A DNA stretch of 64,000 nt from a bacterium (GTDB lineage Bacteria > Desulfobacterota > Binatia > HRBIN30 > CADEER01), in assembly GCA_019637795.1 (NCBI GenBank), contig JAHBUY010000002.1:969606-1033605 (forward strand), read 5' to 3'. Numbering within the stretch: position 1 is the first letter of the stretch; every line of letters starts with the position of its first letter. This document shows positions 6,168 through 59,046 of the stretch, piece after piece. The notes beneath the pieces were generated by a model. It was not told the origin of the DNA. It was given only the letters and a program-made list of their open reading frames with translations, and did not search any database. Position numbers and translations under genes: made by a program.

Positions 6168-6848
6168 TCAGCGGCGGCGCAGGATGAGCCCGACGACGAC
6201 GGCGATGATGCGCACGGTGTCGCCCCACGGCCGATAGTGGCTGATCCGCTCGGCGGCCGGCGGATAGTAGACGTCGACCGGCACCGAGACGATCTCCACC
6301 CCGGCGCGCGCGGCCCGGATCAGCACCTCGGTCTCGAAGGCGAACCGCCCGGCGGTGGCGCCGAGCCGCAGGGTGTCGGCCAGCGGGTAGACGCGAAAGC
6401 CGGACTGCGTGTCCGGCAGCGCCTGGCCGCAGGCGATCTCGACCCAGCGGTTGGCGAAGCGGTTGCCGAAGAGCTTGATCGGCGTCACCTCCTGGTCGCC
6501 GATGCGGCGGGCGCCGACGATCAACGCCCGCGGCGCCGCCGCCGACGCCGCCAGCAGGGCCGGAATCTCGCGCCCCAGGTGCTGGCCGTCGCCGTCCATG
6601 GTCAGCGCGTGGGTGACCCCCTCGCCCGCCAGGCGCGCGAAGCCGGCGCGCAACGCCTCGCCCTTGCCGCGGTTCACGGGCTGGCAGAGCACGGCCGCCC
6701 CGGCGGCCTCGGCCCGCGCCGCCGTGTCGTCGCGCGACCCGTCGTCGACCACCAGCACCCGATCGACGTGGCGCCGCGCGCCGCCGACCACGTCGGCGAT
6801 CGTCGCCGCGCAGTCGTAGGCCGGAATCAGCACCGCGCAGCGTCGCAT
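6168..6848 (-). CDS. family 2 glycosyltransferase (polyprenyl-phosphate sugar transferase-like)
   Basis: GT2 signature (VLIPAYDCAATIADVV...VLVVDDGSRDDT...MDGDGQH...QSGFRVYP). The ATG at 6846-6848 was verified in the sequence. Confidence 0.8.
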   Translation of the reverse strand: MRRCAVLIPAYDCAATIADVVGGARRHVDRVLVVDDGSRDDTAARAEAAGAAVLCQPVNRGKGEALRAGFARLAGEGVTHALTMDGDGQHLGREIPALLAASAAAPRALIVGARRIGDQEVTPIKLFGNRFANRWVEIACGQALPDTQSGFRVYPLADTLRLGATAGRFAFETEVLIRAARAGVEIVSVPVDVYYPPAAERISHYRPWGDTVRIIAVVVGLILRRR

Positions 6849-6996
6849 CGCCCGAACTTTTCACACGCGGCGGCGGAGCGACAGAGGCGGCCCGGCGCGG
6901 CCTCGCCACCGCCGTTGCGCCGTCTCTCCCCGTGGATCCTCGTTGCGCGGCGAGGCTGAATTGAGGGCGCCGCGCGGGCTATGCTAGCGCCACGCG

Positions 6997-7977
6997 ATGA
7001 CCGCCCCCTCCGCCCCCGTCGCCGCGCGCCTGCGCGCGGCGCTGCGCTTCGACGGCATCTGGTGGCGGAAGCTCGCCTGGCTGGGCTGCGTCTACGGCCC
7101 CGAATGGTGGAAGCAGGGCTCGCCGCCGCTGATCGCGGCGCTCATCTACGCCGGCGTCGGCCGCAACCGCCGCGGCGCCGTCACAAACCTGCAGCGCGTT
7201 CTCGGCGACCCCGATCCGCGGCGGGCGCGCCAGATGGCGCTGCGCATGTACGCCGAGTTCGCCCGCTGCATGACCGAGACGCTGGAGCACTTCGGACCCC
7301 GCCCGCAACCGGTGCGGATCGACGAGCCGACCCGCGACGTCGTCGGCGAGGCCCTGGCCGAGGGCCGCGGCCTGGTGCTGGTGACCGGCCACGTCGGCAA
7401 CTGGGACGTCGCCGCCCGCACCCTCGAGCAGTACGACCGCCCGTTCAACCTGGTGATGGCGCACGAGCGCAACGCCACCACCAGCGCCTACGCGCGCGCC
7501 ATCCGCGAGCGCGCCGGCATGCGGGTGATCTACTCCGACACCTCGGTGTTCTCGTCGCTCAACATGATCCGCGCCCTGCGCGACAACGAGATCGTCGCCA
7601 TCCAGCTCGACCGCACCCTCGGCGTCGGCACCACCCGCATGGTCGAGTTCTTCGGCGCCCCGGCGCCGTTCCCGACCGGGCCGTTCGTTCTCGCCCGCCT
7701 CGCCGGCGCGCCGCTGCTGCCGGTCTTCTTCCCGCGCCTCGGCACCCGCCACTACGCCATCCGCCTCGGCACCCGCCTGACCCTGCCGCGCGACGCCGGC
7801 GACGCGCCGGCGCTGGCGCGCGCCATGCGCGCCGTCGCCGCCGAGCTCGAGGACGTCATCCGCGAGTTCCCGCACCAGTGGTTCCAGTTCGCGCCCTTCT
7901 GGCCGGAGGACGCCGCCCCGAGCGCGCGCCAGCGACCGGCCGACCGCGACGCGCGAGTGCGCGGCCGGCGCGACTAG
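6997..7977 (+). CDS. lipid A biosynthesis (Kdo2-lipid IVA) lauroyl/myristoyl-type acyltransferase family protein (LpxL/HtrB-like)
   Basis: Lip_A_acyltrans features (WWRKLAWLGCVYGPEWW...LVTGHVGNWD...). It is divergent from the GT2 gene. Confidence 0.7.
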   Translation: MTAPSAPVAARLRAALRFDGIWWRKLAWLGCVYGPEWWKQGSPPLIAALIYAGVGRNRRGAVTNLQRVLGDPDPRRARQMALRMYAEFARCMTETLEHFGPRPQPVRIDEPTRDVVGEALAEGRGLVLVTGHVGNWDVAARTLEQYDRPFNLVMAHERNATTSAYARAIRERAGMRVIYSDTSVFSSLNMIRALRDNEIVAIQLDRTLGVGTTRMVEFFGAPAPFPTGPFVLARLAGAPLLPVFFPRLGTRHYAIRLGTRLTLPRDAGDAPALARAMRAVAAELEDVIREFPHQWFQFAPFWPEDAAPSARQRPADRDARVRGRRD

Positions 7978-8014
7978 TCCAGGAGTCGACCAGGATTGCC
8001 GGGAGCGCGTGATG

Positions 8015-8743
8015 CTAGGCCGCCAGCTCGGCGGCGATCTGCGCCCGCACCGTCTCGCGCAGGCGGTCGCGGTCCTCGTACGTCAGGCCGGCGGTGGCGA
8101 TCGGCGGCAGGATCACCAGCTCGGCCGAACCGGGGAGAATCGAGAGATACTGCCCCTTGGGCATGATGCGGGTCGTCCCCTTGCAGACCACGGGGACGAT
8201 GGGGACGCCGAGTTGGATGGCGGCGACGAAGGCGCCCTTGCGGAACGGCAGCAGCTCGCCGTCGGCGCTGCGCGTCCCTTCCGGGAAGATCACCAGCGAG
8301 CCGCCGTCGAGCGTCACCTTCTGCAGCCGCTCGATGGAGGCCAGGGGATCGTCGCGATCGATGGGAATCATCCCCATGGTGCGGAGCACGGCGCCGAGGA
8401 TCGGCTCGGCGAACATCTCGCGCTTGGCGGCGAACCGGGTCACCCCTGGCAGGAGGCCGAGCAGGGCGGCGATGTCGAAGTGGCTCTGGTGGTTGGGTGC
8501 GAAGATGTACGGCCCGGGGCCGAGCTGTTCGCGCCCGCGCACCCGGATGCGCACGCCGCACACCCGCATGAGGTTGCGCGCCTGCAGCTTGGCGAAGCGC
8601 CACGCCAGCGGCCGGCTGATCTGGTACAGGCCGATGGCCACCAGTCCGGACGAGAACAGCATGGCGCGGAAGAGCACGCGGTTGAGGGCGACGCGCAACC
8701 GCGTCGGCTCGGCGGCGCTGACGGCAACGGCATCGGCGGGCAT
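8015..8743 (-). CDS. plsC: 1-acyl-sn-glycerol-3-phosphate acyltransferase (PlsC family)
   Basis: HxxxxD motif (NHQSHFDI) and FPEGTRS motif. The Met (MPADAVAVS) at 8743 was verified. The 30 residues annotated upstream of this Met mirror the neighbouring gene because of a perfect palindrome and are not considered coding. Confidence 0.8.
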   Translation of the reverse strand: MPADAVAVSAAEPTRLRVALNRVLFRAMLFSSGLVAIGLYQISRPLAWRFAKLQARNLMRVCGVRIRVRGREQLGPGPYIFAPNHQSHFDIAALLGLLPGVTRFAAKREMFAEPILGAVLRTMGMIPIDRDDPLASIERLQKVTLDGGSLVIFPEGTRSADGELLPFRKGAFVAAIQLGVPIVPVVCKGTTRIMPKGQYLSILPGSAELVILPPIATAGLTYEDRDRLRETVRAQIAAELAA

Positions 8744-8746
8744 GCG

Positions 8747-8822
8747 GGTAGCAGTATCCAGCGCCCTCCGGCGGGGCAAGATACGCGGCTTGCCCCGCCG
8801 GAGGGCGCTGGATACTGCTACC
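8747..8822. promoter_or_regulatory. perfect 76-bp palindrome (34-bp arms, 8-bp loop) exactly filling the gap between divergent start codons
   Basis: The arm GGTAGCAGTATCCAGCGCCCTCCGGCGGGGCAAG (8747-8780) and the arm 8789-8822 are exact reverse complements. The loop is ATACGCGG. Three nt separate each end from the plsC ATG (8743) and the rSAM GTG (8826). Symmetric GATACT hexamers (-10-like) lie about 10 bp from each start. Confidence 0.6.
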
Positions 8823-8825
8823 GGC

Positions 8826-10178
8826 GTGCGCATCCTCCTCGTATCGCCGACGCACTACAACGCCGACGGCACGTTGCATAAGACGACCCGCTACTGGACC
8901 AGCGGCCTGACGCTGGCGACGCTCAAGGCGCTCACCCCGCCGGGACACGACGTGCGCATGGTCGACGAGCTGTTCCACGACGTCGACCTCGATTTCGACG
9001 GCGACGTCGTCGGCATCACCGCCATGGGACCGCAGATCCGCCGCGCCTACGAGCTCGCCGACCACTTCCGCGGCCGCGGCCGCAAGGTGGTGCTCGGCGG
9101 CACCTGGGTGACGCTCACCGCCGAGGCGTCGCTGCGCCACGCCGACGCCGTGGTCGCCGGCGAGGCCGAATCCGTCTGGCCGCAGGTCCTCGAGGACCTC
9201 GCCGCCGGCCGCAGCCGCGGCATCTACCGCGCCGCCCAGTGGCACGACCTGCGCGGTCTGCCGCGCGTCGATTACACCAGCCTGCCGCTGCTCAAGTACG
9301 ACGCCTTCAAGCGCAGTTGGCTCTACCGCATGTACTTCCACTGGCCGATCGTCTTCTCGCGCGGCTGTCCGCACCCCTGCGAGTACTGCGCCGTGCAGAC
9401 GTTCTACGAGCGCGGCTTCCGCACCCGCCCGGTGGACGAGGTGATCGCCGACCTGGAGGCGATCAAGGCGCTCGGCGCCAACCGCATCCTGTTCCTCGAC
9501 GACAACCCGATCGGCAATCCGACCGCGGCGAAGGAGCTGTTCCGCGCCATGGTTCCGCTGAAGCTGAAGTGGGCCAGCCAGTGCACGATCAACATCGCCC
9601 GCGATCCCGAGCTGCTCGACCTCGCGGCGCGCAGCGGCTGCGTCAGCCTGTCGATCGGCCTCGAGAGCATCAACGAGGACAGCCTCGAGACGATCGGCAA
9701 ACGCTTCAATCAGCCGCGCCGCTTCGACCGCGACCTGGCGGCGATCCGCGCCAAGGGCATCCAGGTGATCGGCCTGCTGATGGTCGGCCTCGACGGCGAC
9801 ACCCTCGATACCTTCCAGCGCTCGCTCGCGTTCCTGATCGACAACAAGGTGTCGTTCCTCAAGCTCTTCACGCCCTGCCCGTACCCCGGCACCAAGTACT
9901 ACGACGACATGCTGGCCGCGGACCGGATCACCATCCAGGACTGGGGCCGCTACGACTACGGCAGCCCGATCATCAAGCCGGCGCAGATGACCGCCGAGGA
10001 GATGATGAGCGGCTTCAAGACCGTCTACGAAGGCTTCTACTCGTCGCGCGCCATCGCCAAGCGCCTCTTCCCCCCGCCCGCCGGCAGCTATCTCGAGACC
10101 CTCGCCTACCTGGTCGCCAACCTGAAGGTGAACCGCTACCTGCGCTCGCACGAGAACGCCTGGGCGACGATCTCGTGA
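8826..10178 (+). CDS. B12-binding (class B) radical SAM enzyme
   Basis: N-terminal cobalamin-binding-like domain (LLVSPTHYN...GITAMGPQ), a CxxxCxxC cluster (CPHPCEYC) and a radical SAM core. A GTG start at 8826 was chosen because the upstream part of the 694-aa ORF is a mirror image of plsC created by the palindrome. Confidence 0.7.
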   Translation: MRILLVSPTHYNADGTLHKTTRYWTSGLTLATLKALTPPGHDVRMVDELFHDVDLDFDGDVVGITAMGPQIRRAYELADHFRGRGRKVVLGGTWVTLTAEASLRHADAVVAGEAESVWPQVLEDLAAGRSRGIYRAAQWHDLRGLPRVDYTSLPLLKYDAFKRSWLYRMYFHWPIVFSRGCPHPCEYCAVQTFYERGFRTRPVDEVIADLEAIKALGANRILFLDDNPIGNPTAAKELFRAMVPLKLKWASQCTINIARDPELLDLAARSGCVSLSIGLESINEDSLETIGKRFNQPRRFDRDLAAIRAKGIQVIGLLMVGLDGDTLDTFQRSLAFLIDNKVSFLKLFTPCPYPGTKYYDDMLAADRITIQDWGRYDYGSPIIKPAQMTAEEMMSGFKTVYEGFYSSRAIAKRLFPPPAGSYLETLAYLVANLKVNRYLRSHENAWATIS

Positions 10179-10208
10179 GAACGGCGCGACGCTCTTGGCT
10201 GACGCGAC

Positions 10209-10372
10209 AAAAGACTTTCACCACGGAGGCACGGAGACACGGAGAGTACTGAGCTCGAAGCCCGCCCAGCGTTCATCCCAACGTTCATTGGAAATGGAGT
10301 GAGAAGAGGCCCCGCGCCTTCGCTGTGGCACCGAGCCCTCCGTGTCTCCGTGCCTCCGTGGTGAGGAGTTTT
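10209..10372. mobile_element. MITE-like inverted-repeat element, copy 1
   Basis: Terminal inverted repeats TTCACCACGGAGGCACGGAGACACGGAG (10217-10244) and its reverse complement (10338-10364) flank a roughly 95-bp core. The same arms recur at 48.8 kb and at the window end. Sits in a convergent intergenic region. Confidence 0.65.
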
Positions 10373-10406
10373 CTGTCTCATCGGCCTGACGGCGGAACAG
10401 CCTCGC

Positions 10407-11726
10407 TCAGAGCTCGCGTAACGTCCCGCGCACCCGGAAGAGCCCGCCGTCGGCGGTGGCGCCGAAACGTCCGCGCGCCGTCGCGTCGTCGAAGCGTCGG
10501 TGGCGCGCCGCCAGCTCGGCGGCGAGCCCGGCGTCGCCGCCGAGCAGGTCGGCGGTGCCGGACATCAGGCGCACGAAGGCGGTGCGCGCCTCGAGCGGTC
10601 CCTCGGGGTTGAGCAGCTTGCGCGCCGTCCAGAAGTACGAGTCGGGATCGGTGTGGTGGTCGTAGAAGAAGTAGAGGAACTGGCGGTAGCGCTCGAAGGC
10701 GGCGCGGTAGCGCCGGTCGTAGTCGGCGAGGGCGTCGGCCGGCGACACGTTCCCGGCCAGCAGGCGCTCGACGGCGCGCGCCGCCAGGTAGCCAGCCATC
10801 GACGCCAGGTGCACGCCCGTGGAGAACACCGGATCGATGAAGCAGGCGGCGTCGCCGGCGAGCAGGTAGCCGGGGCCGTGGAAGGCGCGGCTGTCGTAGG
10901 AGTAATCGCGGATCACCCGCACCGGCGCGACGCGCCGGGCGGCGCGCGTCCGCGCCGCCACCGGCGCGCAGGCGGCGACCAGGCGCTCGTAGAGCGGCGT
11001 CGCGTCGCCGCCCGCCTCGCCGGCGAAACGGGTGGCGTCGACCACCGCGCCGACGCTGGTGGTGCCGTCGTGCAGCGGGATGAACCAGAACCAGCCATCG
11101 GCGAAGGCGGCGGAGAGGATGTTGCCGGCGGTGTCGCCGGCCAGGGGCTCGGCGCCGGTGAAGTAGGAGAAGACCGCCAGGTTCTTGAAGAAGGGATCGA
11201 AGCGACGCTGCCCGTCGCGCCGCCCGAGCAGCGCCTGCTGGCCGCTGGCGTCGATCACCCACGGCGCCCGCGCCTCGACCGCCGCGCCGCGCTCGTCGCG
11301 GGCGGCGACCCGGTTGCACGCGCCGTCGTAGGTCACCGTCTCGACCCGATGCGCCTCGCGGACGTCGACTCCGAGCGCCGCCGCGTGGCGTAGCAGGAGG
11401 TGGTCGAACTCCGCCCGCACGACGTGGAAGGCGTGCGGCCGGCCGCCGGGATCGTCGCGGAAGTAGAAGCTCCACGGTTCGGCGCGCGCCCCCCACACGA
11501 AGGTGCCGCCCGGTTTGCGCACGAACCCGGCCGCCTCGATCGCCGGCAGCACCCCCAGCGCCTCCAGCACCGGCATGGTCGCCGACAGCAGCGACTCGCC
11601 GATGTGGTAGCGCGGAAAGCGCTCGCGCTCGAACAGCAGCACCCGCGCCCCCGCCTGGGCGAGAAACCCGGCCGCGACGCTGCCCGCCGGGCCGCCGCCG
11701 ATGACGATGGCGTCAGCGTCGAGCAT
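10407..11726 (-). CDS. flavin-dependent halogenase (tryptophan-halogenase family)
   Basis: GxGxxG FAD fold (IVIGGGPAGSVAAGFLA) plus the diagnostic WxWxIP motif (GWFWFIPL). The Met (MLDADAIV) at 11726 was verified. The 52 codons upstream are Arg/Gly-rich junk. Confidence 0.8.
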   Translation of the reverse strand: MLDADAIVIGGGPAGSVAAGFLAQAGARVLLFERERFPRYHIGESLLSATMPVLEALGVLPAIEAAGFVRKPGGTFVWGARAEPWSFYFRDDPGGRPHAFHVVRAEFDHLLLRHAAALGVDVREAHRVETVTYDGACNRVAARDERGAAVEARAPWVIDASGQQALLGRRDGQRRFDPFFKNLAVFSYFTGAEPLAGDTAGNILSAAFADGWFWFIPLHDGTTSVGAVVDATRFAGEAGGDATPLYERLVAACAPVAARTRAARRVAPVRVIRDYSYDSRAFHGPGYLLAGDAACFIDPVFSTGVHLASMAGYLAARAVERLLAGNVSPADALADYDRRYRAAFERYRQFLYFFYDHHTDPDSYFWTARKLLNPEGPLEARTAFVRLMSGTADLLGGDAGLAAELAARHRRFDDATARGRFGATADGGLFRVRGTLREL

Positions 11727-11740
11727 GCCGTGCCTTCCGT

Positions 11741-12376
11741 TCAGCGCTTGCGCTTCTTCGCCGGCGCTGGCGTCGGGGCCGCCGCGACCGCCTGCTGCAC
11801 CGGTTCGTTGTTGCTGGGCGCGCCGCCGATGATCGCCGACACCTGACCGTCCGCGCCGAACTTGACCTCGAAGGTCACCCACCGGTTGCGCCAGTAGACC
11901 CAGGTGTCGGCGCTGGTCGATGGCGTGCGGTGGGTCGGCGGATAGCCGAGCGACATCAGCACCTGCTCGCGCGTCATGCCGCGCTCGACGCGGCCGTCAC
12001 GGATGGCCGCCTGCACCGACGGCGAGAACGTCGCGAAGCGCGCGTGCGGGTCGATCTCGACCAGGACCTTGGCGAAGAACTGCTGAGAGGTCTCCTGCTC
12101 CGTCCCGTACGCCTGGGTGAGCGTGACGTTGACGTCGGCGGCGCGAAAGCTCACCGACCTGGCGGTCATGCCCGTGACCGTCGCGGGACTCCCGAACGGC
12201 AGCAGGGCGCCAACCTGATAATTGGCGTCGACCACGTCGGCCGGATTTTCATAGTGGATATTGCAGCACGTGTAGAGCTGCCGCGCCTGCCATTGCTGCA
12301 GAACGCCCGGTGCCACCTTCGCCGCGCAGCCGGCAAGCACGAGCGCCAGCGCCGCGATCGTTCGTCGAAATCGCAT
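11741..12376 (-). CDS. lipoprotein of unknown function
   Basis: Lipobox signal MRFRRTIAALALVLAGCAAK. The Met at 12376 was verified. Ends 15 nt upstream of the halogenase start on the same strand, so likely co-transcribed. Confidence 0.55.
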   Translation of the reverse strand: MRFRRTIAALALVLAGCAAKVAPGVLQQWQARQLYTCCNIHYENPADVVDANYQVGALLPFGSPATVTGMTARSVSFRAADVNVTLTQAYGTEQETSQQFFAKVLVEIDPHARFATFSPSVQAAIRDGRVERGMTREQVLMSLGYPPTHRTPSTSADTWVYWRNRWVTFEVKFGADGQVSAIIGGAPSNNEPVQQAVAAAPTPAPAKKRKR

Positions 12377-12498
12377 GCAGCCTCCTGTCCCCGCCGCCGC
12401 TGCAGTCGGCGCGGGGCGGCTCGCATCTAGACCGCGGCCGGAGCACTTCGCAACCGCCGACTCCCGGCGCGCCGCCAGGCGCATCGCCCGCGACCCCC

Positions 12499-12912
12499 TC
12501 AGCACCCGATGGCGGCGAGGTGTCCCTCCTCGGCGTAGGCGAGCAGACCGGCGTCGCGGGTGACCAGGCGGTAGCCGCAGGCGCGCGCGGTGGCGGCGAG
12601 GATGCGATCCACCGGATCGCGCGGCGGACAGCCGGGCAGGAAGGAGGAGGCGATCAGCGCGGCGGGATCGGTGGCCGCCAGGGCGACGCCGGGCACGGCC
12701 AGCAATCGCCGGAACCACGCTTCCGGGCTGATCGAGATCGTCAGCCGGCTGCGCGCCACCAGCAGGCCGATCTCCCAGGCGCTCATCGGCGACACGAACA
12801 CCGGGCGCCCCGCCGCCGCGGCCGCGTCGAGCGCCGCCGCCGCGGCGCTCGCGATCGGCTGGTCCTCGGCGATCCAGATGGCCGCGCAGGTATCGAGCAG
12901 CAACGGCATCAT
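12499..12912 (-). CDS. vapC: PIN-domain ribonuclease toxin (VapC-like)
   Basis: PIN signature (MPLLLDTCAAIWIAED...ATDPA...LVTRD). A tandem ATGATG start overlaps the stop of the upstream small gene. Confidence 0.7.
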   Translation of the reverse strand: MMPLLLDTCAAIWIAEDQPIASAAAAALDAAAAAGRPVFVSPMSAWEIGLLVARSRLTISISPEAWFRRLLAVPGVALAATDPAALIASSFLPGCPPRDPVDRILAATARACGYRLVTRDAGLLAYAEEGHLAAIGC

Positions 12913-13313
12913 TCGGCGCGGTCGCCCCACTCCGGATCCGCCGGCGCGGCGAGATCGGTGCCGGGCGCGATGCCGAGGAGACCCTTCAGGGCGCCCCGCA
13001 AGGGGTGGCGCCCCCGCGCCACGTAGGCCGGCGCCGCCTCGGCCACCGCGGGCGGCGCCGCCGGCGCCGGCTCGGCAACGCGGCGGAACACCAGCTTCCG
13101 GCCGCTCATGTCGACATTCGCGCTCTCGTAGCCAGCCCGCTTCCAGGCACGGGTGATGACACTGCTCTGCTCGTTGTTGCTCCACCACGCCCGCTGGCCG
13201 GCACTCGGGGGAAGGGGGGCACCGATGATTCGCTCGATGGCCTCGAACGTCATCGGGACCTCCTTCTCCGTCCGACCCTTCAGGTAGTCCTCCAGCGGTC
13301 CGTACTTGGACAT
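12909..13313 (-). CDS. putative antitoxin partner of VapC
   Basis: Small 134-aa ORF immediately upstream, with its stop overlapping the toxin start (ATGATGA). The Ala/Pro-rich acidic C-terminus ending ...DPEWGD is typical of VapB-type tails. Confidence 0.5.
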   Translation of the reverse strand: MSKYGPLEDYLKGRTEKEVPMTFEAIERIIGAPLPPSAGQRAWWSNNEQSSVITRAWKRAGYESANVDMSGRKLVFRRVAEPAPAAPPAVAEAAPAYVARGRHPLRGALKGLLGIAPGTDLAAPADPEWGDRAE

Positions 13314-13431
13314 GACAACTCCCTCTCGAGACTGCTGATAACAGTTTACCTACATTAAGACAACACTGTTGTTCCGCGGTCGGATCACCGCGTCAGCATC
13401 GAGTGGCACGCGAGGCCGCCGCCGATCCGCG

Positions 13432-14862: not shown

Positions 14863-14940
14863 GGGTCAGCGCTTACCCGCACGCCGCCGGCGCGGCAAGA
14901 TGAATCACCGCCGCGCGCCGGCCATCGGCCGCGGACCGCT

Positions 14941-17302: not shown

Positions 17303-17408
17303 GGCGTGGCGCGGCGCTGTCACGGTGCGCGGAACGTAGCCCGCCGGCGGCGCCAGTTCCACGACGGCGCGGTCCCGGCGGGCGCCGCCGCGGCGCGGGC
17401 GCGGGACG

Positions 17409-18602: not shown

Positions 18603-18605
18603 CGG

Positions 18606-19805
18606 TCACGGTCGATCGAGGAGCAGGGCGGTCATCGCGCCGCCGCGGGCGCTGCCGCACACCAGGGCGCGGCGGAGATCGGCGGCGGCGGCCTGGCGCG
18701 GCGCCAGGCGCAGCGCGGTGGGGATCGGCGTCTCCAGGTGGCAGAGCGGCGGGACCGCTTGCTCGCGCAGCGCCAGGCAGGCGGCGGCCGCGGTCATGGC
18801 GCCGGCGGCGCCGAAGTCGCCGATCGCGCCCTTGATCGAGGTCACGGTGGCGGCGCGGATCGCCGGCACGGCGGCGAAGAGGTCGAGCTCGCAGGCGTCG
18901 AGACGGCGCGACGAATTGGCGGCGCCGCACACCAGGTCGACCGGCGCCCCGGCGCACAGCGCCGTCAGCGGCGCGATGGCGGCCGGCGCCTGCAGCGGCC
19001 AGTCGTAGCGCGGCGCTTCGCTCGCGCAGGTCGCGGTCGCGACGATGCGGGCATAGATCGGCGCGCCGCGCCGGCGCGCCCGCTCGAGCGGCTCGAGCGC
19101 CAGCATCGCCGCCCCTTCGCCGACCACGACGCCGCTGCGCGCCGCGTCGTAGGGGCTGGCCCATTGGCGACCGCCGCGCTGGCCGGCGAGGGCGCGGGCC
19201 CGGTGCAGGACGCGCACCAGCACGGCCGCGATCTCGTCGGCGCCGCCGGCGAGCACGAGATCGGCGCGGCCGCGGCGCACCGCGTCGACGCCGAGCGCGA
19301 TGGCGGCCTCGCCGGACACCTCCGCCTGCGAGACGGTGAAATTGACGCCGCTGAAGCCGAATTCCATCGCCGCGTAGCTGGCCGGGGCGTTCAGCACCAG
19401 GTTGGGAAACGCCATCGGGCTCACCCCGGCGGGGCCCTTCTGGAACAGGCGGTCGAGTTGCTGCACCGACTCGGTCGCCGCGCCGAGAGCGGAGCCGAAG
19501 ACGATGCCGGCGCGGGCGCGATCGAGCGTCGCCAGGGCGCGCGCGTCGTCGAGCGCCATGCGGCAGGCGGCGACGGTCATGCGCGACAACGCGTCCATGC
19601 GCCGGTAGTGCGTCGAGGCGACGAGCTCGCGGGGGGAGAAGTCGCGCACCGCGGCGGCGCTCGGCGGCAGGCCGTCCGCCAGCGCCAGACCGTCGATCGG
19701 CGCGATGCCGGAGCGGCCGGCGCGCAGCGCGTTCCAGAATTGGCGCGGCCCGACGCCGATCGGACTGACGACGCCGATGCCGGTGACGGCGACGTCGTCG
19801 CTCAT
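18606..19805 (-). CDS. ketosynthase-like protein lacking the active-site Cys (KS-beta / chain-length-factor-like)
   Basis: Thiolase fold is present, but the TACSS position reads FTVSQAEVSG (Gln replaces Cys). The Met (MSDDVAV) at 19805 overlaps the stop of the upstream KS (ATGA). Confidence 0.75.
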   Translation of the reverse strand: MSDDVAVTGIGVVSPIGVGPRQFWNALRAGRSGIAPIDGLALADGLPPSAAAVRDFSPRELVASTHYRRMDALSRMTVAACRMALDDARALATLDRARAGIVFGSALGAATESVQQLDRLFQKGPAGVSPMAFPNLVLNAPASYAAMEFGFSGVNFTVSQAEVSGEAAIALGVDAVRRGRADLVLAGGADEIAAVLVRVLHRARALAGQRGGRQWASPYDAARSGVVVGEGAAMLALEPLERARRRGAPIYARIVATATCASEAPRYDWPLQAPAAIAPLTALCAGAPVDLVCGAANSSRRLDACELDLFAAVPAIRAATVTSIKGAIGDFGAAGAMTAAAACLALREQAVPPLCHLETPIPTALRLAPRQAAAADLRRALVCGSARGGAMTALLLDRP

Positions 19806-21016
19806 GGCGTCGCCTCGGGGGCGGCGCCGAGGACCACGCTCGTATTGTTGCCGCCGAAGCCGTACGAGTTCGAGAGCACGGTGCGCAGGGCCGCCGGGCG
19901 GCTGCGCGCCGGCACGTAGTCGAGATCGCACTCGGGATCCGGCTCGCGCAGGCTGACGGTCGGCGGAAGGAAACCGCCGCGCAGCGCCAGCAGCGCCGCC
20001 AGCGCCTCGATGGCGCCGGCGGCGGCGAGGCAGTGTCCGACCTGCGACTTGGTCGACGACACCGGCACCGCATAGGCGCGCGGTCCGAGCACCGCCTTGA
20101 TGGCGCGCGTCTCGACGGCGTCGTTCAGGGGCGTCCCGGTGCCGTGCGCGTTGACGTAGTCGATGCGGTCGGCGTCGACGCCGGCATCGGCGAGGGCGCG
20201 CCGCATCGCCAGGATGGCGCCGGCGCCGTCGGGGCGCGGCTGGGTGAGATGGTGCGCGTCGGCGCTGACCCCGTAGCCGAGGAGCTCGCCGAGGATCGGC
20301 GCGCCGCGGCGCGCGGCGGCCTCCCACGCCTCGAGCACGAACAGGGCCGCCCCTTCGCCCAGGGTCAGGCCGGCGCGGGCGCGATCGAACGGCCGGCAGG
20401 GGACGCGATCGAGGGCCTGCAGGACGTTGAACCCCGAGTAGGTCATGCGGCACAGCGACTCGGCGCCGCCGCACAGCACCGCGGTCGCCTGGCCGCCGCG
20501 GATCCAGTCGGCGGCGATGCCGAGGGCGTTGGCGCCGGAGGAGCACGCGGTGGACACCGTGACGCGCGGGCCGCGGCTGCCGATCAACGCCGCGACGGCG
20601 TCGGTGGCGACCGCGATCGGCGTCTCGAGCCAATCGCGCAGCGGCGCCCGCGCTCCCGTGCCGGCGCCTTCGATGCGGTAGCTCTCCTCGCCGCCGGCGA
20701 GCCCGCCGGTGGTGGTGCCGAGCACCACGCCGCAGGTCCGGCCGTCGTCGAGCCCGCTGCCCCGCCAGGCCTCCGCGGCGGCGACCACGGCGAGCCGCGC
20801 CGTGTGCGAGAGCCGCCGCGCCGCGCCGCTCGGAATGGCCTCCGGCAGCGGCGGCGGCGGCGCTTCCGCGGCGCAGGCCGTGCGGTAGCCCGCGGCGGCG
20901 AAGCGGGTCAGCGCGCCGATGCCGCACCGGCCCTCGCGCAGGCCGGACGCGAAGGCCTCGACCCCGACGCCGAGGGCGTTGATGCTGCCGATGCCGGTGA
21001 TCGCGACCCGGGTCAT
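19802..21016 (-). CDS. beta-ketoacyl synthase (KS-alpha / FabF-like, active)
   Basis: Active-site Cys (VSTACSS), His (NAHGTGT) and His (KSQVGHCL) motifs are present. Confidence 0.85.
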   Translation of the reverse strand: MTRVAITGIGSINALGVGVEAFASGLREGRCGIGALTRFAAAGYRTACAAEAPPPPLPEAIPSGAARRLSHTARLAVVAAAEAWRGSGLDDGRTCGVVLGTTTGGLAGGEESYRIEGAGTGARAPLRDWLETPIAVATDAVAALIGSRGPRVTVSTACSSGANALGIAADWIRGGQATAVLCGGAESLCRMTYSGFNVLQALDRVPCRPFDRARAGLTLGEGAALFVLEAWEAAARRGAPILGELLGYGVSADAHHLTQPRPDGAGAILAMRRALADAGVDADRIDYVNAHGTGTPLNDAVETRAIKAVLGPRAYAVPVSSTKSQVGHCLAAAGAIEALAALLALRGGFLPPTVSLREPDPECDLDYVPARSRPAALRTVLSNSYGFGGNNTSVVLGAAPEATP

Positions 21017-21169
21017 CTCATCGCCTGGAGGTGGAGCGCGCCTGGACGCCCGGGTGACCGGTCGCGCAGGCGCGGGAGATCTCGCGCAGCCATCGCATCG
21101 ACGGAGGCGAAGTATGACAGAGCGAGCGGACGACGCCAGCGGCGCGGCGGCTGCCCCGCGGCCGCGATC

Positions 21170-21943
21170 TCACGCCATGGTCAGGCCGCCGTCGACGGCG
21201 AGGGTGGCGCCGGTGACGTAGGCGGCGGCCGGCGAGGCGAGGAAGCGGATCGCCTGCGCCACCTCGTCCGGCTGGCCGACGCGGCCGAGCGGGACGTGGC
21301 CGAGGTGGCGCTGGCGCAGCGGCGCCGGCATGTCGGCGATCAGACGGGTGTCGACCAGACCGGGGCAGACGGCGTTGACGGTGATGGCATAGCGCCCGAC
21401 CTCGCGCGCCAGCGACTTGGTGAAGCTGAGCAGCCCGCCCTTGGCGGCGGCGTAGTTGGCCGCGCCCTCCTGGCCGAGCAGCGCCGCCGGCGAGACGACG
21501 TTGATGATCCGCCCCCAGCGCCGCTTGATCATCGGCCGCAACGCCTGCCGGGCGCACAGGAAGGCGCCGCGCAGGTTGACGGCCAGCACCTCGTCCCACT
21601 GGGCGGGGCTGAGCAGCATGGCGAGGCCGTCGCGCGTCACCGCGGCGTTGTTGACCAGGATGTCGACGCCGTCCCAGCGTTTGCGCAGGTGGGCGAACAT
21701 CGCCTCGACCTGCGCCGCGTCGGCGACGTCCGCCTGCACCACCTCGACCTCGCCGCCGTGCGCGCGCAGCCCCTCCGCGGTCTCCTCCGCCTCCAGCGCC
21801 GAGCGCGCGTAGTTGACGGCCACCGCGGCGCCCGCCGCCGCCAGCACCTCGGCGGTGGCGCGGCCGATGCCGCGCGAGGCGCCGGTGACCAGGGCGCGCC
21901 GGCCGTCGAGGCGCCAGGGATCGTTCAGCGCAGCAGGCGCCAC
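21170..21943 (-). CDS. 3-oxoacyl-ACP reductase (FabG-like SDR)
   Basis: Rossmann [12 protein letters not shown], and the YAAAK catalytic motif (NYAAAKGG). A GTG start at 21943 was inferred, giving a 19-nt overlap with the upstream rSAM gene. The rest of the 723-aa ORF overlaps that rSAM out of frame. Confidence 0.75.
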
Positions 21944-23298
21944 AACTGGCCCTTGATGCGGCGGTCGCGCAGGCGGCGCAGCACGGCGATGTTGGTCTTG
22001 ATGCCGAGCCCCGGCACGATCCAGTTCGGCTGCTGGCGGGCATAGGCGTCGATGCGATCGATGAGCGCGTCGCCGAGCCCCGGCGCGACGTAGAAGCGGG
22101 GCTCGATCAACGGGTCGTCGGCGTCGATGAGGCCGTCGCGCAGCGCGATCTCGACCATGCCGGTGCCGGGCAGGATGCGGATGCCGGTCATCGCGATCAC
22201 CGCCGTCGGCCGCAGCTCCTCCATCAGGGCGATGGTCTGGTCGATGCTCTCCGCGGTCTCGCCGGGGCCGCCGAAGATCAGGCTGTGGCAGAACTTGAGC
22301 CCGTGCGCCGCGAACAGCGCCGAGGTGCGGCGCAGATCGTCGAGGGCGAACTCCTTGCGCAGGTTGGCGATCAGGGTCGGCGCTCCGGAATCGGTGCCGA
22401 GCTCGATGGCGCGGCAGCCGGAGCGGGCCATCAGGTCGCACAGCTCGGCGTCGACGAACTTGGGGTTCAGGTAGGCGGACCACTCGATGTCGAGGTCGCG
22501 GGCGATGAGCTCGCGGCAGATCGCCTTGGCGTGGCGCAGCGGCAGATTGAAGATGTTGTCGACGAAGAACCAGTGGCGCGCCCCGGTCTCGCGCCGCGCC
22601 GCCTCGATCTCGTCCACCACCGCCGCCGGGCTGCGCACGCGCACGGTCGCGCCTTCGATCAGCGGATAGCTGCAGAACACGCACTCGAAGACGCAGCCGC
22701 GCTTGGTCTGGATGTTCAGCGCGCCCCCGCGCTCGTAGTAGCGGTGCCAGTCGAAGGCGGCGCGGCGCGGCGCGCCGGCGTCGTCGAGACGGCGGATGCG
22801 ACCGGTCGGGGTGACGCAGACGCCGCGGCCCGCGGGCTCGCAACGCATCGCCGCCGTCGAGCGCAGCGACGCGCCGGCGGCCAGGCGCTCGAGCACCCAG
22901 GGGAAGGCGAGCTCGCCCTCGCCGACCACGCCGACCTCGGCGTCGAGCCAGCGCATCAGCGTGCCCGGCATCACCGTGAAGCCGGCGCCGCCGAGCACGA
23001 TCGGCGCCGGCGTCGCGGCGCGCACGGTCTCGATCAGGGCGCGGTAGTCGGGCACGTAGGAGGTGGTCTGCGGATAGGCCGACGAATCGAGGTTGCGCAG
23101 CGAGATGCCGACCGCGTCGGGCGCGAAGTCGCGCACCTGCGCCGTCAGCGCCGCCCGCGGATCGCCGGCGAAGCAGCAGTCGAACGTGGCCACCGTGTGG
23201 CCGTGCTGCTCGGCGACCGTCGCCATGTAGGCGGCGCCGAGCGGATACACCGGATCGGGGAGGTGTTCCGTGTTGGCGGAGATGAGCAGAACGCGCAT
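21925..23298 (-). CDS. B12-binding (class B) radical SAM enzyme
   Basis: The ATG ([12 protein letters not shown]) at 23298 was verified. Cobalamin-binding-like N-terminal domain and a CVFECVFC cluster. Confidence 0.8.
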
Positions 23299-23414
23299 GG
23301 GAAGCCGCCGCGCGGGGGGCGCGACGGCATCCCGCTAGCACAGGGGTGGCGGTGGGTCACGGTTCGAACGGGCCGCTCGGGCGGCGACGCCGCCCGCCGC
23401 CGCCGCGCCACGGT

Positions 23415-24230
23415 TCAGAACCGGGCTTGCAGCGCCAGGCCCTGGCCGGTGGGGAGCGGGCCGATCCCCCAGCGAACCTGGGGATCGGGTCGAATGCCGC
23501 CGCTGTCGACCTGCTCGCGGTACGCCTGCCAACTGTTCAGCGGCTCCCACGGCGTGAGCAGGATCTGCGCCTCGCCGACCGCGGTGTTGAGGAAGAACAG
23601 CAGCGCCGCGTCGCCGAGATCGTCGCGCGCCACCAGCACCGAGGCGGCGCTGGCGTTGAGGACGACGTTGCCGGTGTGGAGCAGCCAGCCGGTGCGCTGC
23701 TCGGCGCGACCGGCGGCGCGGTAGAGGATCTCCTCGCCGGCGGCCAACTGGGCGGCGCGGTCCTCGTGCGTCGCCGACGGCATCGCCGCCAGCGGATCCG
23801 AGCCGCTGCGTCCGGGCAGCGGATCGAGCAGCAGGTAGGTGGTGCCGATGAGCCCGAGGCTGCTGTTGAGGATGTCGTAGACCTGCTTGTCGTCGTTGCT
23901 CTCGACCGCCGCCGTCGCCGCGCCCGCCGCCATGCCGGCGGCGTTGACGGCGAGGAAGCCGTAGTACCACAGCGACGCGTGCAGCTCGTTGTCGTCGAGC
24001 GAGCGGGTGACGAACGTCAGCCGGTCGAGGATCTCCCGATCGCTGAGTTGCGCCGCCTCCTCGGCGGTCAACGGCTTCTTCCCGGGGACGCCGGGATCGA
24101 GCGCCTTGCGCGCCAGCTCGGCGGCACCGTGGTAGACGGCGCAGCCCTGCACGGCGGCCAGCGCCGCCGCGACGGCGATCAGGCGGAGCAGCCGACGCGC
24201 GACCTCGACCCGCGACCTGCTGGTGGTCAT
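23415..24230 (-). CDS. lipoprotein of unknown function
   Basis: Met at 24230 was verified. Signal peptide with lipobox (LAAVQGCA). Confidence 0.5.
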   Translation of the reverse strand: MTTSRSRVEVARRLLRLIAVAAALAAVQGCAVYHGAAELARKALDPGVPGKKPLTAEEAAQLSDREILDRLTFVTRSLDDNELHASLWYYGFLAVNAAGMAAGAATAAVESNDDKQVYDILNSSLGLIGTTYLLLDPLPGRSGSDPLAAMPSATHEDRAAQLAAGEEILYRAAGRAEQRTGWLLHTGNVVLNASAASVLVARDDLGDAALLFFLNTAVGEAQILLTPWEPLNSWQAYREQVDSGGIRPDPQVRWGIGPLPTGQGLALQARF

Positions 24231-24261
24231 CCTCACTCCTCCGCTTCCGGCGGATGCCGGT

Positions 24262-25503
24262 TCAGATTCGCCCCGCCGCGCCACCCGCGGCTCCTGGCGA
24301 TCTCGTATCACGGCCGATGAGCGCCGCGAGATTGTCGCGCATGATCTTGCGGACCTCGAGCGGCGACATCCCGGGCAGCTCGTCGGCGAGCTCGGCCGGC
24401 CACAGGAGTCCCTCGGGATGGGGATAGTCGGAGCCGCCGAGCACGTGGTCGGCGCCGATCAGCCGCGCCAGCGCCGGGATGTCGTCCTCGAAGAAGGGCG
24501 CCACCCACACGTTGCGCCGGAAGGTGTCGCTCGGCCGCTCCGGCGGCACGCCGAAGCGCCACATGTCCTTGCTGTAGAGGCGCGCCAGGTGATCGAGCTT
24601 GTGCAGCAGCGGCGCCACCCAGCCCGAGCCGTACTCGATGCTCAGCACCCGCAGGCCCGGGAAGCGGCCGAAGAGGTTGTCGGCGATCAGCGCCGTGATG
24701 GTATCGACGACCGGCCGCTCGGTGAACGACAGCGCCCACTCCATCAGGGTGTGGCGGTGCGACGGCGGGTGCGGGCGCAGGCCCCAGGGCGGGTTGTACA
24801 TCTCGCTGAAGGGGGTGCGGCCGATGTGGTAGACGATGTTGAGCGACGCCTCCTGGCAGCGCGCCCAGAAGGGATCGAAGTGGGGATCCGCCGGCGAGCG
24901 GCCGGCGAAGGGCCCGGCGGTCAGGATGGCGAAGCGCGCGCCGCGCGCCAGCAGGCGGTCGAGCTCGGCGACCGCCTGGTCGCGGTCGAACAGCGACAGC
25001 AGCGGCGCGCCGAACACGCGGCCGTCGCCCCCGTAGCCCCAATCCTCCTCCAGCCAGCGGTTGAAGGCGCGCAGGCTCGGGTACAGCACCTCCGGCGTCT
25101 CGCGCAGTTGCGGCTCGACGCCGACGCCGGCGGTGGGTAGCAGCAGGGCGGCCTCGACGCGCTGCGCGTCCATCCGCGCCAGGCGGGCCGCGCGGTCGGT
25201 GAACTCCGGCACGGCGAGGGCGTCGATCGGCTGCAGGCTCGGGCTGCCGCCCTCCTCGGTCTCGCCGCGCAGGAACGCCTTCATGATGCCGGGGGCGCCG
25301 ACGCTGTCGCCGGCGCCGACGCTGAAGAACTGGCAGCGTTCGCGGCCGACGTACATTCTGCCCGGGCGGGTGGTGCCGTCGGGCCCGCGGTCGATCCACA
25401 CCGTCCGTTCCCGCCACGCCGCCTCGATGTGCCGGGTGAAGCAGTCGTCCGGCTCGTAGTAATGGGTGTCGGCGTCGAAGAGCGCGTAGTCGAGCGCGGC
25501 CAT
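24262..25503 (-). CDS. amidohydrolase-2 family metal-dependent hydrolase (ACMSD-like)
   Basis: Met (MAALDYALFDADTHYYEP) at 25503 was verified. Amidohydro_2 motifs (DxHxH-like DADTHY, HIG, GSDYPH). Confidence 0.7.
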   Translation of the reverse strand: MAALDYALFDADTHYYEPDDCFTRHIEAAWRERTVWIDRGPDGTTRPGRMYVGRERCQFFSVGAGDSVGAPGIMKAFLRGETEEGGSPSLQPIDALAVPEFTDRAARLARMDAQRVEAALLLPTAGVGVEPQLRETPEVLYPSLRAFNRWLEEDWGYGGDGRVFGAPLLSLFDRDQAVAELDRLLARGARFAILTAGPFAGRSPADPHFDPFWARCQEASLNIVYHIGRTPFSEMYNPPWGLRPHPPSHRHTLMEWALSFTERPVVDTITALIADNLFGRFPGLRVLSIEYGSGWVAPLLHKLDHLARLYSKDMWRFGVPPERPSDTFRRNVWVAPFFEDDIPALARLIGADHVLGGSDYPHPEGLLWPAELADELPGMSPLEVRKIMRDNLAALIGRDTRSPGAAGGAAGRI

Positions 25504-25508
25504 GGCGG

Positions 25509-59024: not shown

Positions 59025-59046
59025 CCCCGCGGCCCGCCGCTGCCAG

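Follow-up and report, generated by a model that had tools for sequence, protein, structure and literature searches.

A Radical-SAM-Rich Gene Island of a Binatia-Like Bacterium Is Probably One Half of an Aryl-Polyene-Type Pigment-Lipid Pathway

Gene Content of the Island

A 64,000-nucleotide stretch of contig JAHBUY010000002.1 (assembly GCA_019637795.1; hereafter the window) from a Binatia-like bacterium holds at positions 6168-25512 an island of genes for three B12-binding radical S-adenosylmethionine (rSAM) enzymes, designated rSAM1 to rSAM3, a NosL-like rSAM protein, a ketosynthase (KS) with a chain-length-factor-like (CLF) partner, a flavin halogenase, two acyltransferases and several candidate head-group enzymes (Table 1). 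Our reading, to which we give a probability of about 0.6, is that the island provides half of a pigment-lipid pathway of the aryl-polyene (APE) type and carries its chain-building, tailoring and lipid-anchoring genes. Since the window has a GC content of about 72%, raw open reading frame (ORF) lists were laden with artefacts, and genes were therefore called by third-position GC frame and verified with Pfam and NCBIfam. The results showed that the full inventory listed in an earlier interpretation of the bare letters (the sequence-only reading) lies at the same coordinates. The three B12-rSAM genes matched exactly, each product having Pfam B12-binding and Radical_SAM domains, and the KS pair, FabG, the halogenase with its WxWxIP motif, the isoprenylcysteine carboxyl methyltransferase (ICMT)-type protein (a weak call), the UPF0104 protein, the NodB deacetylase, PlsC, the LpxL-like acyltransferase and the family 2 glycosyltransferase (GT2) were all present. 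The CxxxCxxC motif is found in all four rSAM proteins. Start/stop overlaps of 4-19 nt at four gene pairs (ICMT/LPG_synthase_TM/NodB, KS/CLF, and rSAM3/FabG) suggest translational coupling.

The sequence-only reading had also stated that the island lacks an acyl carrier protein (ACP), an ammonia lyase and an adenylation enzyme, and this was borne out: Pfam showed no ACP, FabA/FabZ, AMP-binding enzyme or aromatic lyase in the island, tblastn of the whole 64 kb with Binatia ACP, LolA, ApeP-like dehydratase, MMPL and AMP-ligase sequences gave no match, and a tblastn search of the window at E 1e-8 was likewise negative for an aromatic lyase. The possibility that the island conceals an ACP was rejected, as the gaps between genes are too short and a six-frame scan for the GxDS[LIVM] motif was empty. 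Likewise, a search for the ACP, dehydratase, AMP-ligase and lyase in the remainder of the window, which consists mostly of housekeeping genes, yielded none. No Rfam RNA family was detected in the 5-27 kb region.

Table 1. Features of the island, with window coordinates, strand and basis of the assignment.
Feature	Coordinates	Strand	Basis and remarks
Short GT2, polyprenyl-phosphate/lipid-sugar synthase type	6168-6833	-	Glycos_transf_2 62.8 bits; C-terminal transmembrane helix
LpxL/LPLAT-family acyltransferase	6997-7977	+	Pfam Lip_A_acyltrans 110 bits
PlsC-type glycerolipid acyltransferase	8015-8833	-	Pfam Acyltransferase 113.8 bits; divergent from rSAM1
rSAM1, B12-binding radical SAM	8826-10178	+	Radical_SAM 74 bits, B12-binding 35.7 bits; CPHPCEYC
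Trp_halogenase-family flavin halogenase, CndH/CmlS type	10407-11726	-	Pfam 152 bits
BamE/SmpA-like outer-membrane lipoprotein	11741-12376	-	Lipobox LAGC; weak BamE match; N-terminal CCN(I/L)HYE conserved
PIN (VapC-like) + DUF7662 toxin-antitoxin pair	12499-13313	-	Pfam PIN 43.7 bits, DUF7662 57.8 bits; 1-nt overlap
rSAM2, B12-binding radical SAM	13432-14862	-	B12-binding 82 bits, Radical_SAM 77.5 bits
ICMT/PEMT-like integral-membrane methyltransferase	14941-15495	-	Weak: isoprenylcysteine O-methyltransferase 39.9 bits, E 3.8e-10, under cut-off
LPG_synthase_TM (UPF0104) flippase-like protein	15492-16490	-	Pfam 67.6 bits (cut-off 33.4)
NodB-type deacetylase + DUF3473	16487-17458	-	Polysacc_deac_1 78 bits, DUF3473 73 bits
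NosL-like radical SAM + BATS protein	17445-18602	+	CDAECRMC motif
CLF-like partner, FabF homologue without catalytic residues	18606-19805	-	ketoacyl-synt domains; Cys replaced by Glu
KS, FabF-like ketosynthase	19802-21016	-	Cys-His-His triad: TACSS / HGTGT / GH
FabG-type 3-oxoacyl-ACP reductase	21170-21943	-	adh_short_C2 223 bits
rSAM3, B12-binding radical SAM	21925-23298	-	Passes TIGR04072 'rSAM_ladder_B12'
Predicted lipoprotein	23415-24236	-	No Pfam/NCBIfam match; lipobox-like QGC; island membership uncertain
Amidohydro_2 (ACMSD-type hydrolase/decarboxylase family)	24262-25512	-	Pfam 71 bits; possibly island-associated

The Gene Set Recurs Across Binatia-Type Genomes

In order to place the island among its relatives, rSAM2 orthologs of at least 61% identity were collected in 59 of the fetched loci (all fetched loci bear the prefix L below); beneath that value identity falls to 40% or less. 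Most of these loci belong to metagenome-assembled genomes (MAGs) of Candidatus Binatia/Binatota, many others are labelled 'delta proteobacterium'/Deltaproteobacteria or Thermodesulfobacteriota, and a few bear other labels. Gene-order maps were built from tblastn and our own gene calls, and the 25 loci whose sequence extends 8 kb or more to both sides of the rSAM2 ortholog formed the well-sampled set. At least two other island families were present within 10 kb in 17 of these 25, so that the clustering is not due to chance. The gene set recurs, reordered, in many Binatia-type MAGs with proteins of 55-86% identity; nearly all of it is found in L083, L004 and L017, and no locus has every family. 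Together, these data indicated that the island is a genuine conserved system. The proposal of one functional lipid- or polyketide-like tailoring island, which the sequence-only reading had made dependent on conserved synteny in relatives, is upheld.

Four arrangements were distinguished. Type A loci have the order [KS CLF] rSAM3 FabG KS CLF NosL-like NodB LPG_synthase_TM ICMT rSAM2 (lipoproteins) MIO-lyase (lipoproteins) halogenase rSAM1, followed by divergent PlsC and then LpxL and GT2, where MIO-lyase denotes an aromatic lyase of the 4-methylideneimidazole-5-one type. The compact type B loci hold genes for a NosL-like enzyme, LPG_synthase_TM, a SAM methyltransferase, a pyridoxal-phosphate decarboxylase, an rSAM3-like protein, the halogenase, a BamE-like lipoprotein, the lyase, rSAM2 and GT2. 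In type C the LPG_synthase_TM gene is the sole neighbour kept by rSAM2, and type D loci read rSAM2-LpxL-PlsC-GT2. The genes conserved downstream of type B loci (GTPase, racemase, SecA, ArgJ) were considered as pathway parts and rejected as lineage synteny. The closest relative is L083 (contig CAVWTK010000009.1), with 77-91% DNA identity and the window's gene order without PIN/DUF7662. This long-read MAG shows many apparent frameshifts, with the rSAM1, rSAM2, rSAM3 and NosL-like genes broken into several frames like pseudogenes, which is probably an assembly error.

An MIO lyase with the ASG motif was present in nine of the 25 well-sampled loci, and in several relatives (e.g., L004, L007, L009, L017, L018) it lies between rSAM2 and the halogenase, the place held by PIN/DUF7662 in the window. 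The enzyme has the NLVRSH motif in common with the tyrosine aminomutase SgTAM, to which it scores 326 bits, and it scores about equally as a histidine ammonia-lyase (348 bits). The selectivity motif was tried as a means of separating histidine ammonia-lyases from tyrosine ammonia-lyases or aminomutases and gave no discrimination, NLVRSH being found in both the histidine ammonia-lyase 6v6h and SgTAM.

The KS Module Is Fused to Aryl-Polyene Genes in Relatives

APE gene clusters typically comprise an ACP, an AMP-ligase, a KS/CLF pair, a ketoreductase, an ApeP-type dehydratase, a LolA-like protein, an MMPL protein, an LPLAT acyltransferase and a GT2; an MIO lyase is a flexirubin-type addition and a halogenase a xanthomonadin-type one. 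In L089 (GCA_023150935.1, Candidatus Binatia) the KS module stands among just such genes, in the order Omp85, KS, KS, rSAM3, FabG, ACP, KS, KS, LolA, ApeP-like/FabA dehydratase, LolA-like, MMPL, AMP-ligase and NosL-like. The same extra genes accompany rSAM3-FabG-KS-CLF in L091 and L092, save for the AMP-ligase of L092, which sits about 20-35 kb away on the same contig, in L093. There, some 17 kb separates the KS half (L092) from the half with the head-group and halogenase genes (L093), and in another metagenome the two halves (L090 and L007) are on different contigs. The dehydratases of L089 and L092 are of the ApeP-like (PF22817) plus FabA kind, and the rSAM3 orthologs embedded in these APE-type clusters have about 70% identity to the window's enzyme.

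We next looked for the corresponding genes of the window's own organism. A profile of three Binatia MMPL proteins retrieved an MMPL protein (P0514) whose exact sequence also occurs on a 7-kb contig, L095, of run SRR28740823, and the same run holds the exact rSAM3 of the window. The gene order on L095 is Omp85-like, ACP, LolA, LolA-like, MMPL and AMP-ligase. The window's organism thus very probably encodes these functions at a second locus, which would explain the parts that seemed to be missing from the island. In L089 (4607-7294), L092 (4845-7496) and L095 (1-1485) the APE-type genes are immediately preceded on their upstream side by a gene for an outer-membrane beta-barrel of the Omp85/ShlB type. 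This barrel and the several BamE-like lipoproteins of the islands may form a dedicated pair for outer-membrane insertion or export.

Aryl polyenes had been discounted in the sequence-only reading because an ACP, an ammonia lyase and an adenylation enzyme were missing, a gap that is specific to this locus. In relatives the KS module is fused to APE genes. Of the two lipid products it had offered, an APE-like pigment anchored via LpxL/PlsC is now favoured over methylated, halogenated or chain-linked membrane lipids. A full-text literature search found no published APE-type cluster with these rSAM and head-group genes, and a genome survey of the Binatota does not mention aryl polyenes (PMC8262859).

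Radical SAM Enzymes

The three B12-rSAM enzymes differ in how near they come to named families. The sequence-only reading had seen no fit to a hopanoid (HpnP/HpnR) or bacteriochlorophyll (BchE) context, and the family scores agree: against BchE (TIGR02026, cut-off 481.35) rSAM1, rSAM2 and rSAM3 reached 109.7, 160.1 and 67.3 bits, against HpnR (cut-off 650) 65.7, 96.5 and 51.2 bits, and the HpnP model was absent among their NCBIfam matches. The identities BchE, HpnP/HpnR, PhpK, GenK-like, AprD4, TsrM and ThiH were all rejected for the island's rSAM proteins because NCBIfam scores fall far under the cut-offs, TIGR04072 for rSAM3 being the sole exception. The same Binatota survey counts bchE as ubiquitous in the phylum (PMC8262859), and some of these calls, which were used to argue for bacteriochlorophyll genes, may instead be paralogues of the rSAM enzymes described here.

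For rSAM1, which belongs to no named family, BchE is the top NCBIfam match. It is the most conserved protein of the island, with 80-86% identity in most type A loci, 73% in L030 and 62-67% in the error-rich L083, and it forms a divergent pair with PlsC in every type A locus whose sequence extends that far. An analogy of this pair to the tetraether systems MSS/Tes was dropped as unsupported on the basis of one paper, which did not mention B12, cobalamin or PlsC for these enzymes, and no sequence comparison with MSS/Tes was made. Similarly, rSAM2 is in no named family; its top NCBIfam match is HpnJ (TIGR03471), over the full length at 185.6 bits with a cut-off of 577.6, and its top PDB match is AprD4 (110 bits). 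HpnJ and AprD4 both act on a glucosamine ring. By analogy, rSAM2 is proposed to modify an aminosugar head group.

In contrast to rSAM1 (65.7 bits) and rSAM2 (126.1 bits), rSAM3 passes the cut-off of 360 for TIGR04072, a model of lipid biosynthesis B12-binding/radical SAM proteins, with 381.8 bits over model positions 1-439 of 443. Its top PDB match is TsrM, a tryptophan C2-methyltransferase (141 bits), and among families BzaD and a tryptophan 2-C-methyltransferase come next. Relatives that were looked up include Nitrospirota and Schekmanbacteria MAGs; none was labelled as anammox among ten looked up of 1200 (50%-representative search, E <=1e-30), a sample that is uninformative on this point. 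A literature search on TIGR04072 returned nothing usable.

The fourth rSAM protein had been called ThiH/HydG-type. The superfamily stands, and the ThiH-type assignment does not: in PDB comparisons the protein scores 240 bits to NosL as against 86 to ThiH and 82-92 to HydG. It remains under the NCBIfam cut-offs of both NosL (TIGR04158, 245.0 vs 400) and ThiH (TIGR02351, 150.7 vs 380). We propose from these scores that it is a NosL-like aromatic-amino-acid lyase of the ThiH/HydG superfamily and a putative starter-unit enzyme. In L089 and L093 the NosL-like gene adjoins that of the AMP-ligase.

Candidate Chain-Building, Halogenation and Lipid-Anchoring Genes

The KS, with its intact catalytic triad, has FabF (296 bits) as the top PDB match, followed by 9s5h_B (276), the ishigamide KS (239), the actinorhodin KS (231) and 6qsp (176), which we take to be the E. 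coli APE KS. In the CLF the aligned His positions are also not His, and the gene overlaps that of the KS by 4 nt; its top PDB match is 9s5h_C, which at 159 bits is level with E. coli FabF at 157. The two-chain composition of 9s5h and the Cys-to-Val and His-to-Glu changes of chain C suggest to us that this entry is amxFabF-het, the anammox FabF heterodimer; a literature search on 9S5H returned nothing usable. FabG passes the cut-off of the NF009466 FabG subfamily and falls short of TIGR01830 (278.7 vs 297.75). The island does not fit an aromatic type II polyketide synthase (PKS), whose CLF has Gln at the site where the window has Glu; the actinorhodin KS scores under FabF against the window's KS, and neither an ACP nor a cyclase was found in the island by Pfam.

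The halogenase retains the FAD motif GGGPAGS, the WFWFIP sequence and the catalytic Lys. Its top PDB match is 3e1t ('Halogenase', 337 bits), which we take to be CndH, the Lys presumably being the counterpart of the CndH residue numbered K76. The gene is kept in 11 of the 25 well-sampled loci, and in L008 (rSAM2 82%) a vanadium-haloperoxidase-like protein with DUF6851, VCPO_2nd and PAP2 domains (15151-16776) replaces it. The presence of a different enzyme at the halogenase position suggests that halogenation itself is selected.

Of the anchoring genes, GT2, which we take to be the ApeJ analogue, has AglJ (94 bits) and PpgS (87 bits) as top NCBIfam matches, both under cut-off, and reaches 32.7 against ArnC (cut-off 529); it adjoins the rSAM2 ortholog in many type B and D loci. 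The LpxL-like acyltransferase, our presumed ApeD analogue, scores best in NCBIfam against the phosphatidylinositol mannoside (PIM) acyltransferase (104.6 vs cut-off 209) and has orthologs in L016, L019, L025, L030, L061, L083 and L093. The conserved neighbour after PlsC in relatives (F20) was tried as a GT-C-type glycosyltransferase and rejected, being a soluble di-haem protein with two CxxCH motifs.

The remaining head-group genes are tightly packed: that of the ICMT-like protein, which also gave a weak phosphatidylethanolamine methyltransferase (PEMT) match, overlaps the LPG_synthase_TM gene by 4 nt. The LPG_synthase_TM protein passes TIGR00374 (44.9, cut-off 43.2) and scores 31.1 against HpnL (TIGR03476, cut-off 195.65). 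The NodB deacetylase reaches 218 against TIGR03006 (cut-off 276), and its N-terminal alignment makes a true start near 17320 likely. In 26 of 34 loci, rSAM2 has a GT2, LPG_synthase_TM or NodB gene no more than 3 kb away.

As a set, the GT2, NodB, flippase-like and B12-rSAM genes appear to parallel the head-group logic of hopanoid HpnI, HpnK, HpnL and HpnJ, with a counterpart here for the glycosyltransferase HpnI, the deacetylase HpnK, the UPF0104 protein HpnL and the B12-rSAM HpnJ. The differences are that scores in the window are far under the Hpn cut-offs, that squalene-hopene cyclase and HpnH are absent from the window, and that HpnK is not known to be NodB-type, whereas the window's deacetylase is NodB plus DUF3473. 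HpnJ and the archaeal calditol synthase Cds are precedents for rSAM sugar ring contraction on lipid head groups (PMC13459092).

Insertions, Island Edges and Other Elements of the Window

The PIN/DUF7662 pair lies between rSAM2 and the BamE-like gene and is absent from L083 and all other loci; it is an insertion and stands outside the pathway. In L090 the same island is interrupted by other toxin-antitoxin pairs (DUF433/DUF5615). The BamE-like gene next to it has homologues (BamEl/xBamE2/F4) in most type A and B loci. At the rSAM3 end of the island, the predicted lipoprotein is conserved in L083 and in the near-identical contigs L001/L002, and a 262-aa gene with no Pfam match upstream of rSAM3 in L094 is a possible counterpart by position. 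An Amidohydro_2 gene upstream of the KS module in L090 is just 24% identical to that of the window.

At the other end, the gene adjoining GT2 (5369-6160) encodes a secreted protein that combines a long Pro/Thr linker with two DxDxDG repeats of dockerin/EF-hand-like type; it is also island-adjacent in L083, and L013 has a 43% homologue beside an rSAM2 ortholog that stands alone. Between rSAM1 and the halogenase, whose genes converge, the gap is filled by a perfect inverted repeat of 27 nt (TCACCACGGAGGCACGGAGACACGGAG) whose arms are 93 nt apart (10218-10364). A second element with the same termini of about 30 nt and a diverged interior is at 48825-48964, where shuffled sequences gave an expectation of 0 matches. 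Both look like a miniature inverted-repeat transposable element or repetitive extragenic palindrome (MITE/REP-like element). Farther along, 57555-61075 is a separate small module of two ORFs, 57555-59024 (489 aa) and 59276-61075 (599 aa), with an 80-aa ORF (59047-59289) between them; MBOAT-family and FkbH_N-domain proteins are reported for the gene set as a whole, and the module might be a DltB/DltC-like O-acylation system.

A Model for the Pathway

The likeness of the island to APE, xanthomonadin and flexirubin clusters lies in its KS with catalytically dead partner and ketoreductase, LpxL/LPLAT acyltransferase, GT2 and flavin halogenase; ACP, AMP-ligase, LolA-like and MMPL genes occur in relatives and at the probable second locus, and the ApeP-like dehydratase and MIO lyase in relatives. 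It differs in the addition of three B12-rSAM enzymes and the NosL-like rSAM, of the NodB deacetylase, LPG_synthase_TM protein, ICMT-like methyltransferase and BamE-like lipoproteins (with an Omp85-like neighbour at related loci), in having no class I SAM ring methyltransferase or thioesterase seen in the window, and in a pathway split over at least two loci of this genome. Our model starts from the gene content, the intact rSAM, KS and halogenase motifs, the linkage kept across MAGs and, in relatives, the fusion with hallmark genes of APE clusters, all of which were directly observed; from these we infer the substrates and rSAM chemistries throughout. The product, which as in the sequence-only reading cannot be named, is most likely a pigment-lipid of the aryl-polyene type, halogenated and methylated and destined for the outer envelope.

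Synthesis would begin with an aromatic acid that the NosL-like enzyme derives from an aromatic amino acid; in many relatives the MIO lyase/aminomutase would be a further source. The AMP-ligase would activate this starter and load it onto the ACP; a NosL-like gene beside the ligase recalls NosL/NosI/NosJ of nosiheptide, which make, adenylate and load 3-methyl-2-indolic acid. NosL is the closest relative of the window's enzyme, and relatives pair the NosL-like gene with an AMP-ligase and, in the cluster, an ACP, while the context differs in having no thiopeptide genes and the enzyme falls under the NosL equivalog cut-off.

The FabF-like KS with its dead partner, FabG and a dehydratase would extend the starter to a polyene or hydroxy-acyl chain. 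The CndH-type halogenase may then halogenate the electron-rich head, and rSAM3 may C-methylate the ring or the chain, a role chosen because TsrM is its nearest solved relative and BzaD and tryptophan 2-C-methyltransferase are its next-best families. Besides the CndH/CmlS-type halogenases, the pairing recalls the aminomutase-halogenase systems of the SgcC4/SgcC3 type, as the relatives' MIO enzyme is near SgTAM; both comparisons differ in that no nonribosomal peptide synthetase/PKS assembly line is present here and the MIO enzyme is absent from the window.

The LpxL-like and PlsC acyltransferases would place the finished chain on a lyso-(glyco)lipid, whose head group would receive an N-acetylhexosamine from GT2 and be deacetylated by NodB. 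Following the logic of HpnI/HpnK/HpnJ and calditol synthase, the HpnJ/AprD4-like rSAM2 could rearrange or deoxygenate the aminosugar, with the ICMT-like enzyme as a putative methylase. The flippase-like, MMPL, LolA-like and BamE-like/Omp85-like proteins would carry the product to the outer membrane.

Several observations weigh against this scheme. Neither the window nor the 7-kb L095 yielded a dehydratase or a thioesterase, and we infer, rather than read from coordinates, that both loci lie on one contig. Type B loci have no KS within 10 kb and yet keep the lyase, halogenase, rSAM2, GT2 and NosL-like genes, so the aromatic and sugar chemistry may not need chain extension, and in eight of the 25 well-sampled loci the rSAM2 ortholog is in other contexts. 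The KS itself is nearer to housekeeping FabF than to the E. coli APE KS. The roles given to the three B12-rSAM enzymes are drawn by analogy from nearest relatives, all matches but one being under family cut-offs, and among the homologues found none has a cultured host, all being from metagenomes or MAGs.

Ladderane Comparison and Alternative Readings

The order rSAM3-FabG-KS-CLF brings together a B12-rSAM, an active FabF and a triad-less FabF, as does anammox Cluster I (KustE3603-3608), the proposed ladderane cluster. This cluster, which consists of an ACP, FabZ, two FabFs, a phytoene-dehydrogenase-like enzyme and a B12-rSAM, has been called unique to ladderane producers, and its FabF2/FabFmut pair was shown to be a heterodimer of the KS/CLF kind (bioRxiv 10.64898/2026.05.19.726425). 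In recent work on ladderanes, a B12-rSAM accompanied by one active and one dead FabF is regarded as anammox-specific, and ladderane-type antiSMASH calls outside anammox, with function unknown, have already been reported (PMC9902471). The window differs from Cluster I in having no homologue of amxACP, amxFabZ or the phytoene dehydrogenase and is therefore not a Cluster I-type member; PP-binding, FabA/FabZ and amine-oxidase/phytoene-desaturase Pfam domains were found neither in the island nor among the 25 listed of 39 families in the genes of 33-64 kb. Further differences are that the KS is upstream of the CLF, that FabG is present, that the context is APE-type and that the host is Binatia-like, with 72% GC, and no anammox planctomycete. 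The link of rSAM3 to the anammox enzyme consists of the TIGR04072 model name and score, not a direct comparison of the two enzymes.

These parallels feed the strongest rival, which we regard as rather unlikely: fatty-acid tailoring without an aromatic cap, in which the KS/dead-KS pair, FabG and the TIGR04072 rSAM would make methyl-branched or cyclised (ladderane-related) chains for insertion by PlsC/LpxL, and the halogenase, lyase and NosL-like genes would belong to a separate, co-travelling small-molecule pathway. The passing TIGR04072 score, the FabF-like KS, the separation of the island's two halves in some genomes and the B12-rSAM plus active/dead FabF heterodimer of anammox Cluster I (bioRxiv 10.64898/2026.05.19.726425) all agree with it, as does the top match of the CLF to 9s5h_C, whose Cys-to-Val and His-to-Glu changes fit amxFabFmut. 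That match, however, is the one that stands level with E. coli FabF, genes resembling amxACP, amxFabZ or a phytoene desaturase were not found, and the KS module of relatives is fused to LolA, ApeP-like dehydratase, MMPL and AMP-ligase genes, which ordinary membrane fatty acids do not need.

A more speculative idea, which we think improbable, joins the two systems: TIGR04072-type enzymes would act on ACP-bound polyene or enoyl chains from a FabF-like KS/dead-KS heterodimer, and Cluster I and the island would descend from one polyene-type pathway, the Binatia enzyme cyclising or C-methylating an aryl- or indolyl-capped polyene. A heteroaryl starter, namely an indolic acid from the NosL-like enzyme, would be a second possible novelty.

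Lipopolysaccharide (LPS) or lipid A remodelling fits the island less well. Here GT2, NodB and the flippase-like protein would produce a polyprenyl-phosphate aminosugar, and the LpxL-like enzyme would add a special secondary acyl chain from the two FabF homologues; systems for comparison are ArnC/ArnD, LgmA/LgmC, PpgS and the rhizobial acpXL-fabF2XL-fabF1XL-lpxXL cluster. The best families of GT2 are indeed polyprenyl-phosphate sugar synthases (AglJ, PpgS, weakly ArnC), the NodB and flippase-like genes are adjacent, a Lip_A_acyltrans member is present, and the BamE-like lipoproteins and Omp85-like neighbour point to the outer membrane. Nevertheless, we hold this very unlikely: no widely conserved GT-C (ArnT-like) transferase was found, a multi-transmembrane candidate occurring in L009 only, the LpxL-like protein scores best against the PIM acyltransferase, not LpxL, and the halogenase, MIO lyase, NosL-like enzyme, AMP-ligase and MMPL/LolA would have no role. 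Finally, that unrelated operons stand together by chance or lineage-specific synteny is suggested by the porous loci (NIDO, beta-lactamase, FG-GAP, sigma factor, SpoIID, AsmA and toxin-antitoxin genes are inserted in different MAGs) and the eight stand-alone rSAM2 orthologs, and is scarcely credible in view of the re-association of the same families in varied orders and orientations (types A, B and D) with proteins just 55-85% identical, the short gene overlaps and the non-orthologous replacement of the halogenase.

Significance

Clusters of the APE type rank with the most common biosynthetic gene clusters of bacteria, and the product class of the pathway proposed here is probably known; what is new and testable is the rSAM tailoring, the head-group module and the link to a ladderane-family enzyme. 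A TIGR04072-passing protein with an active and a dead FabF in another phylum, in a pigment-lipid context, offers a comparative route to the function of the ladderane enzyme. If the shared descent from one polyene-type pathway were true, the still unsolved radical chemistry of ladderanes would gain a model outside anammox bacteria, one of high GC and perhaps open to expression. For the Binatota, an uncultured phylum, the island adds a candidate pigment or envelope-lipid pathway.

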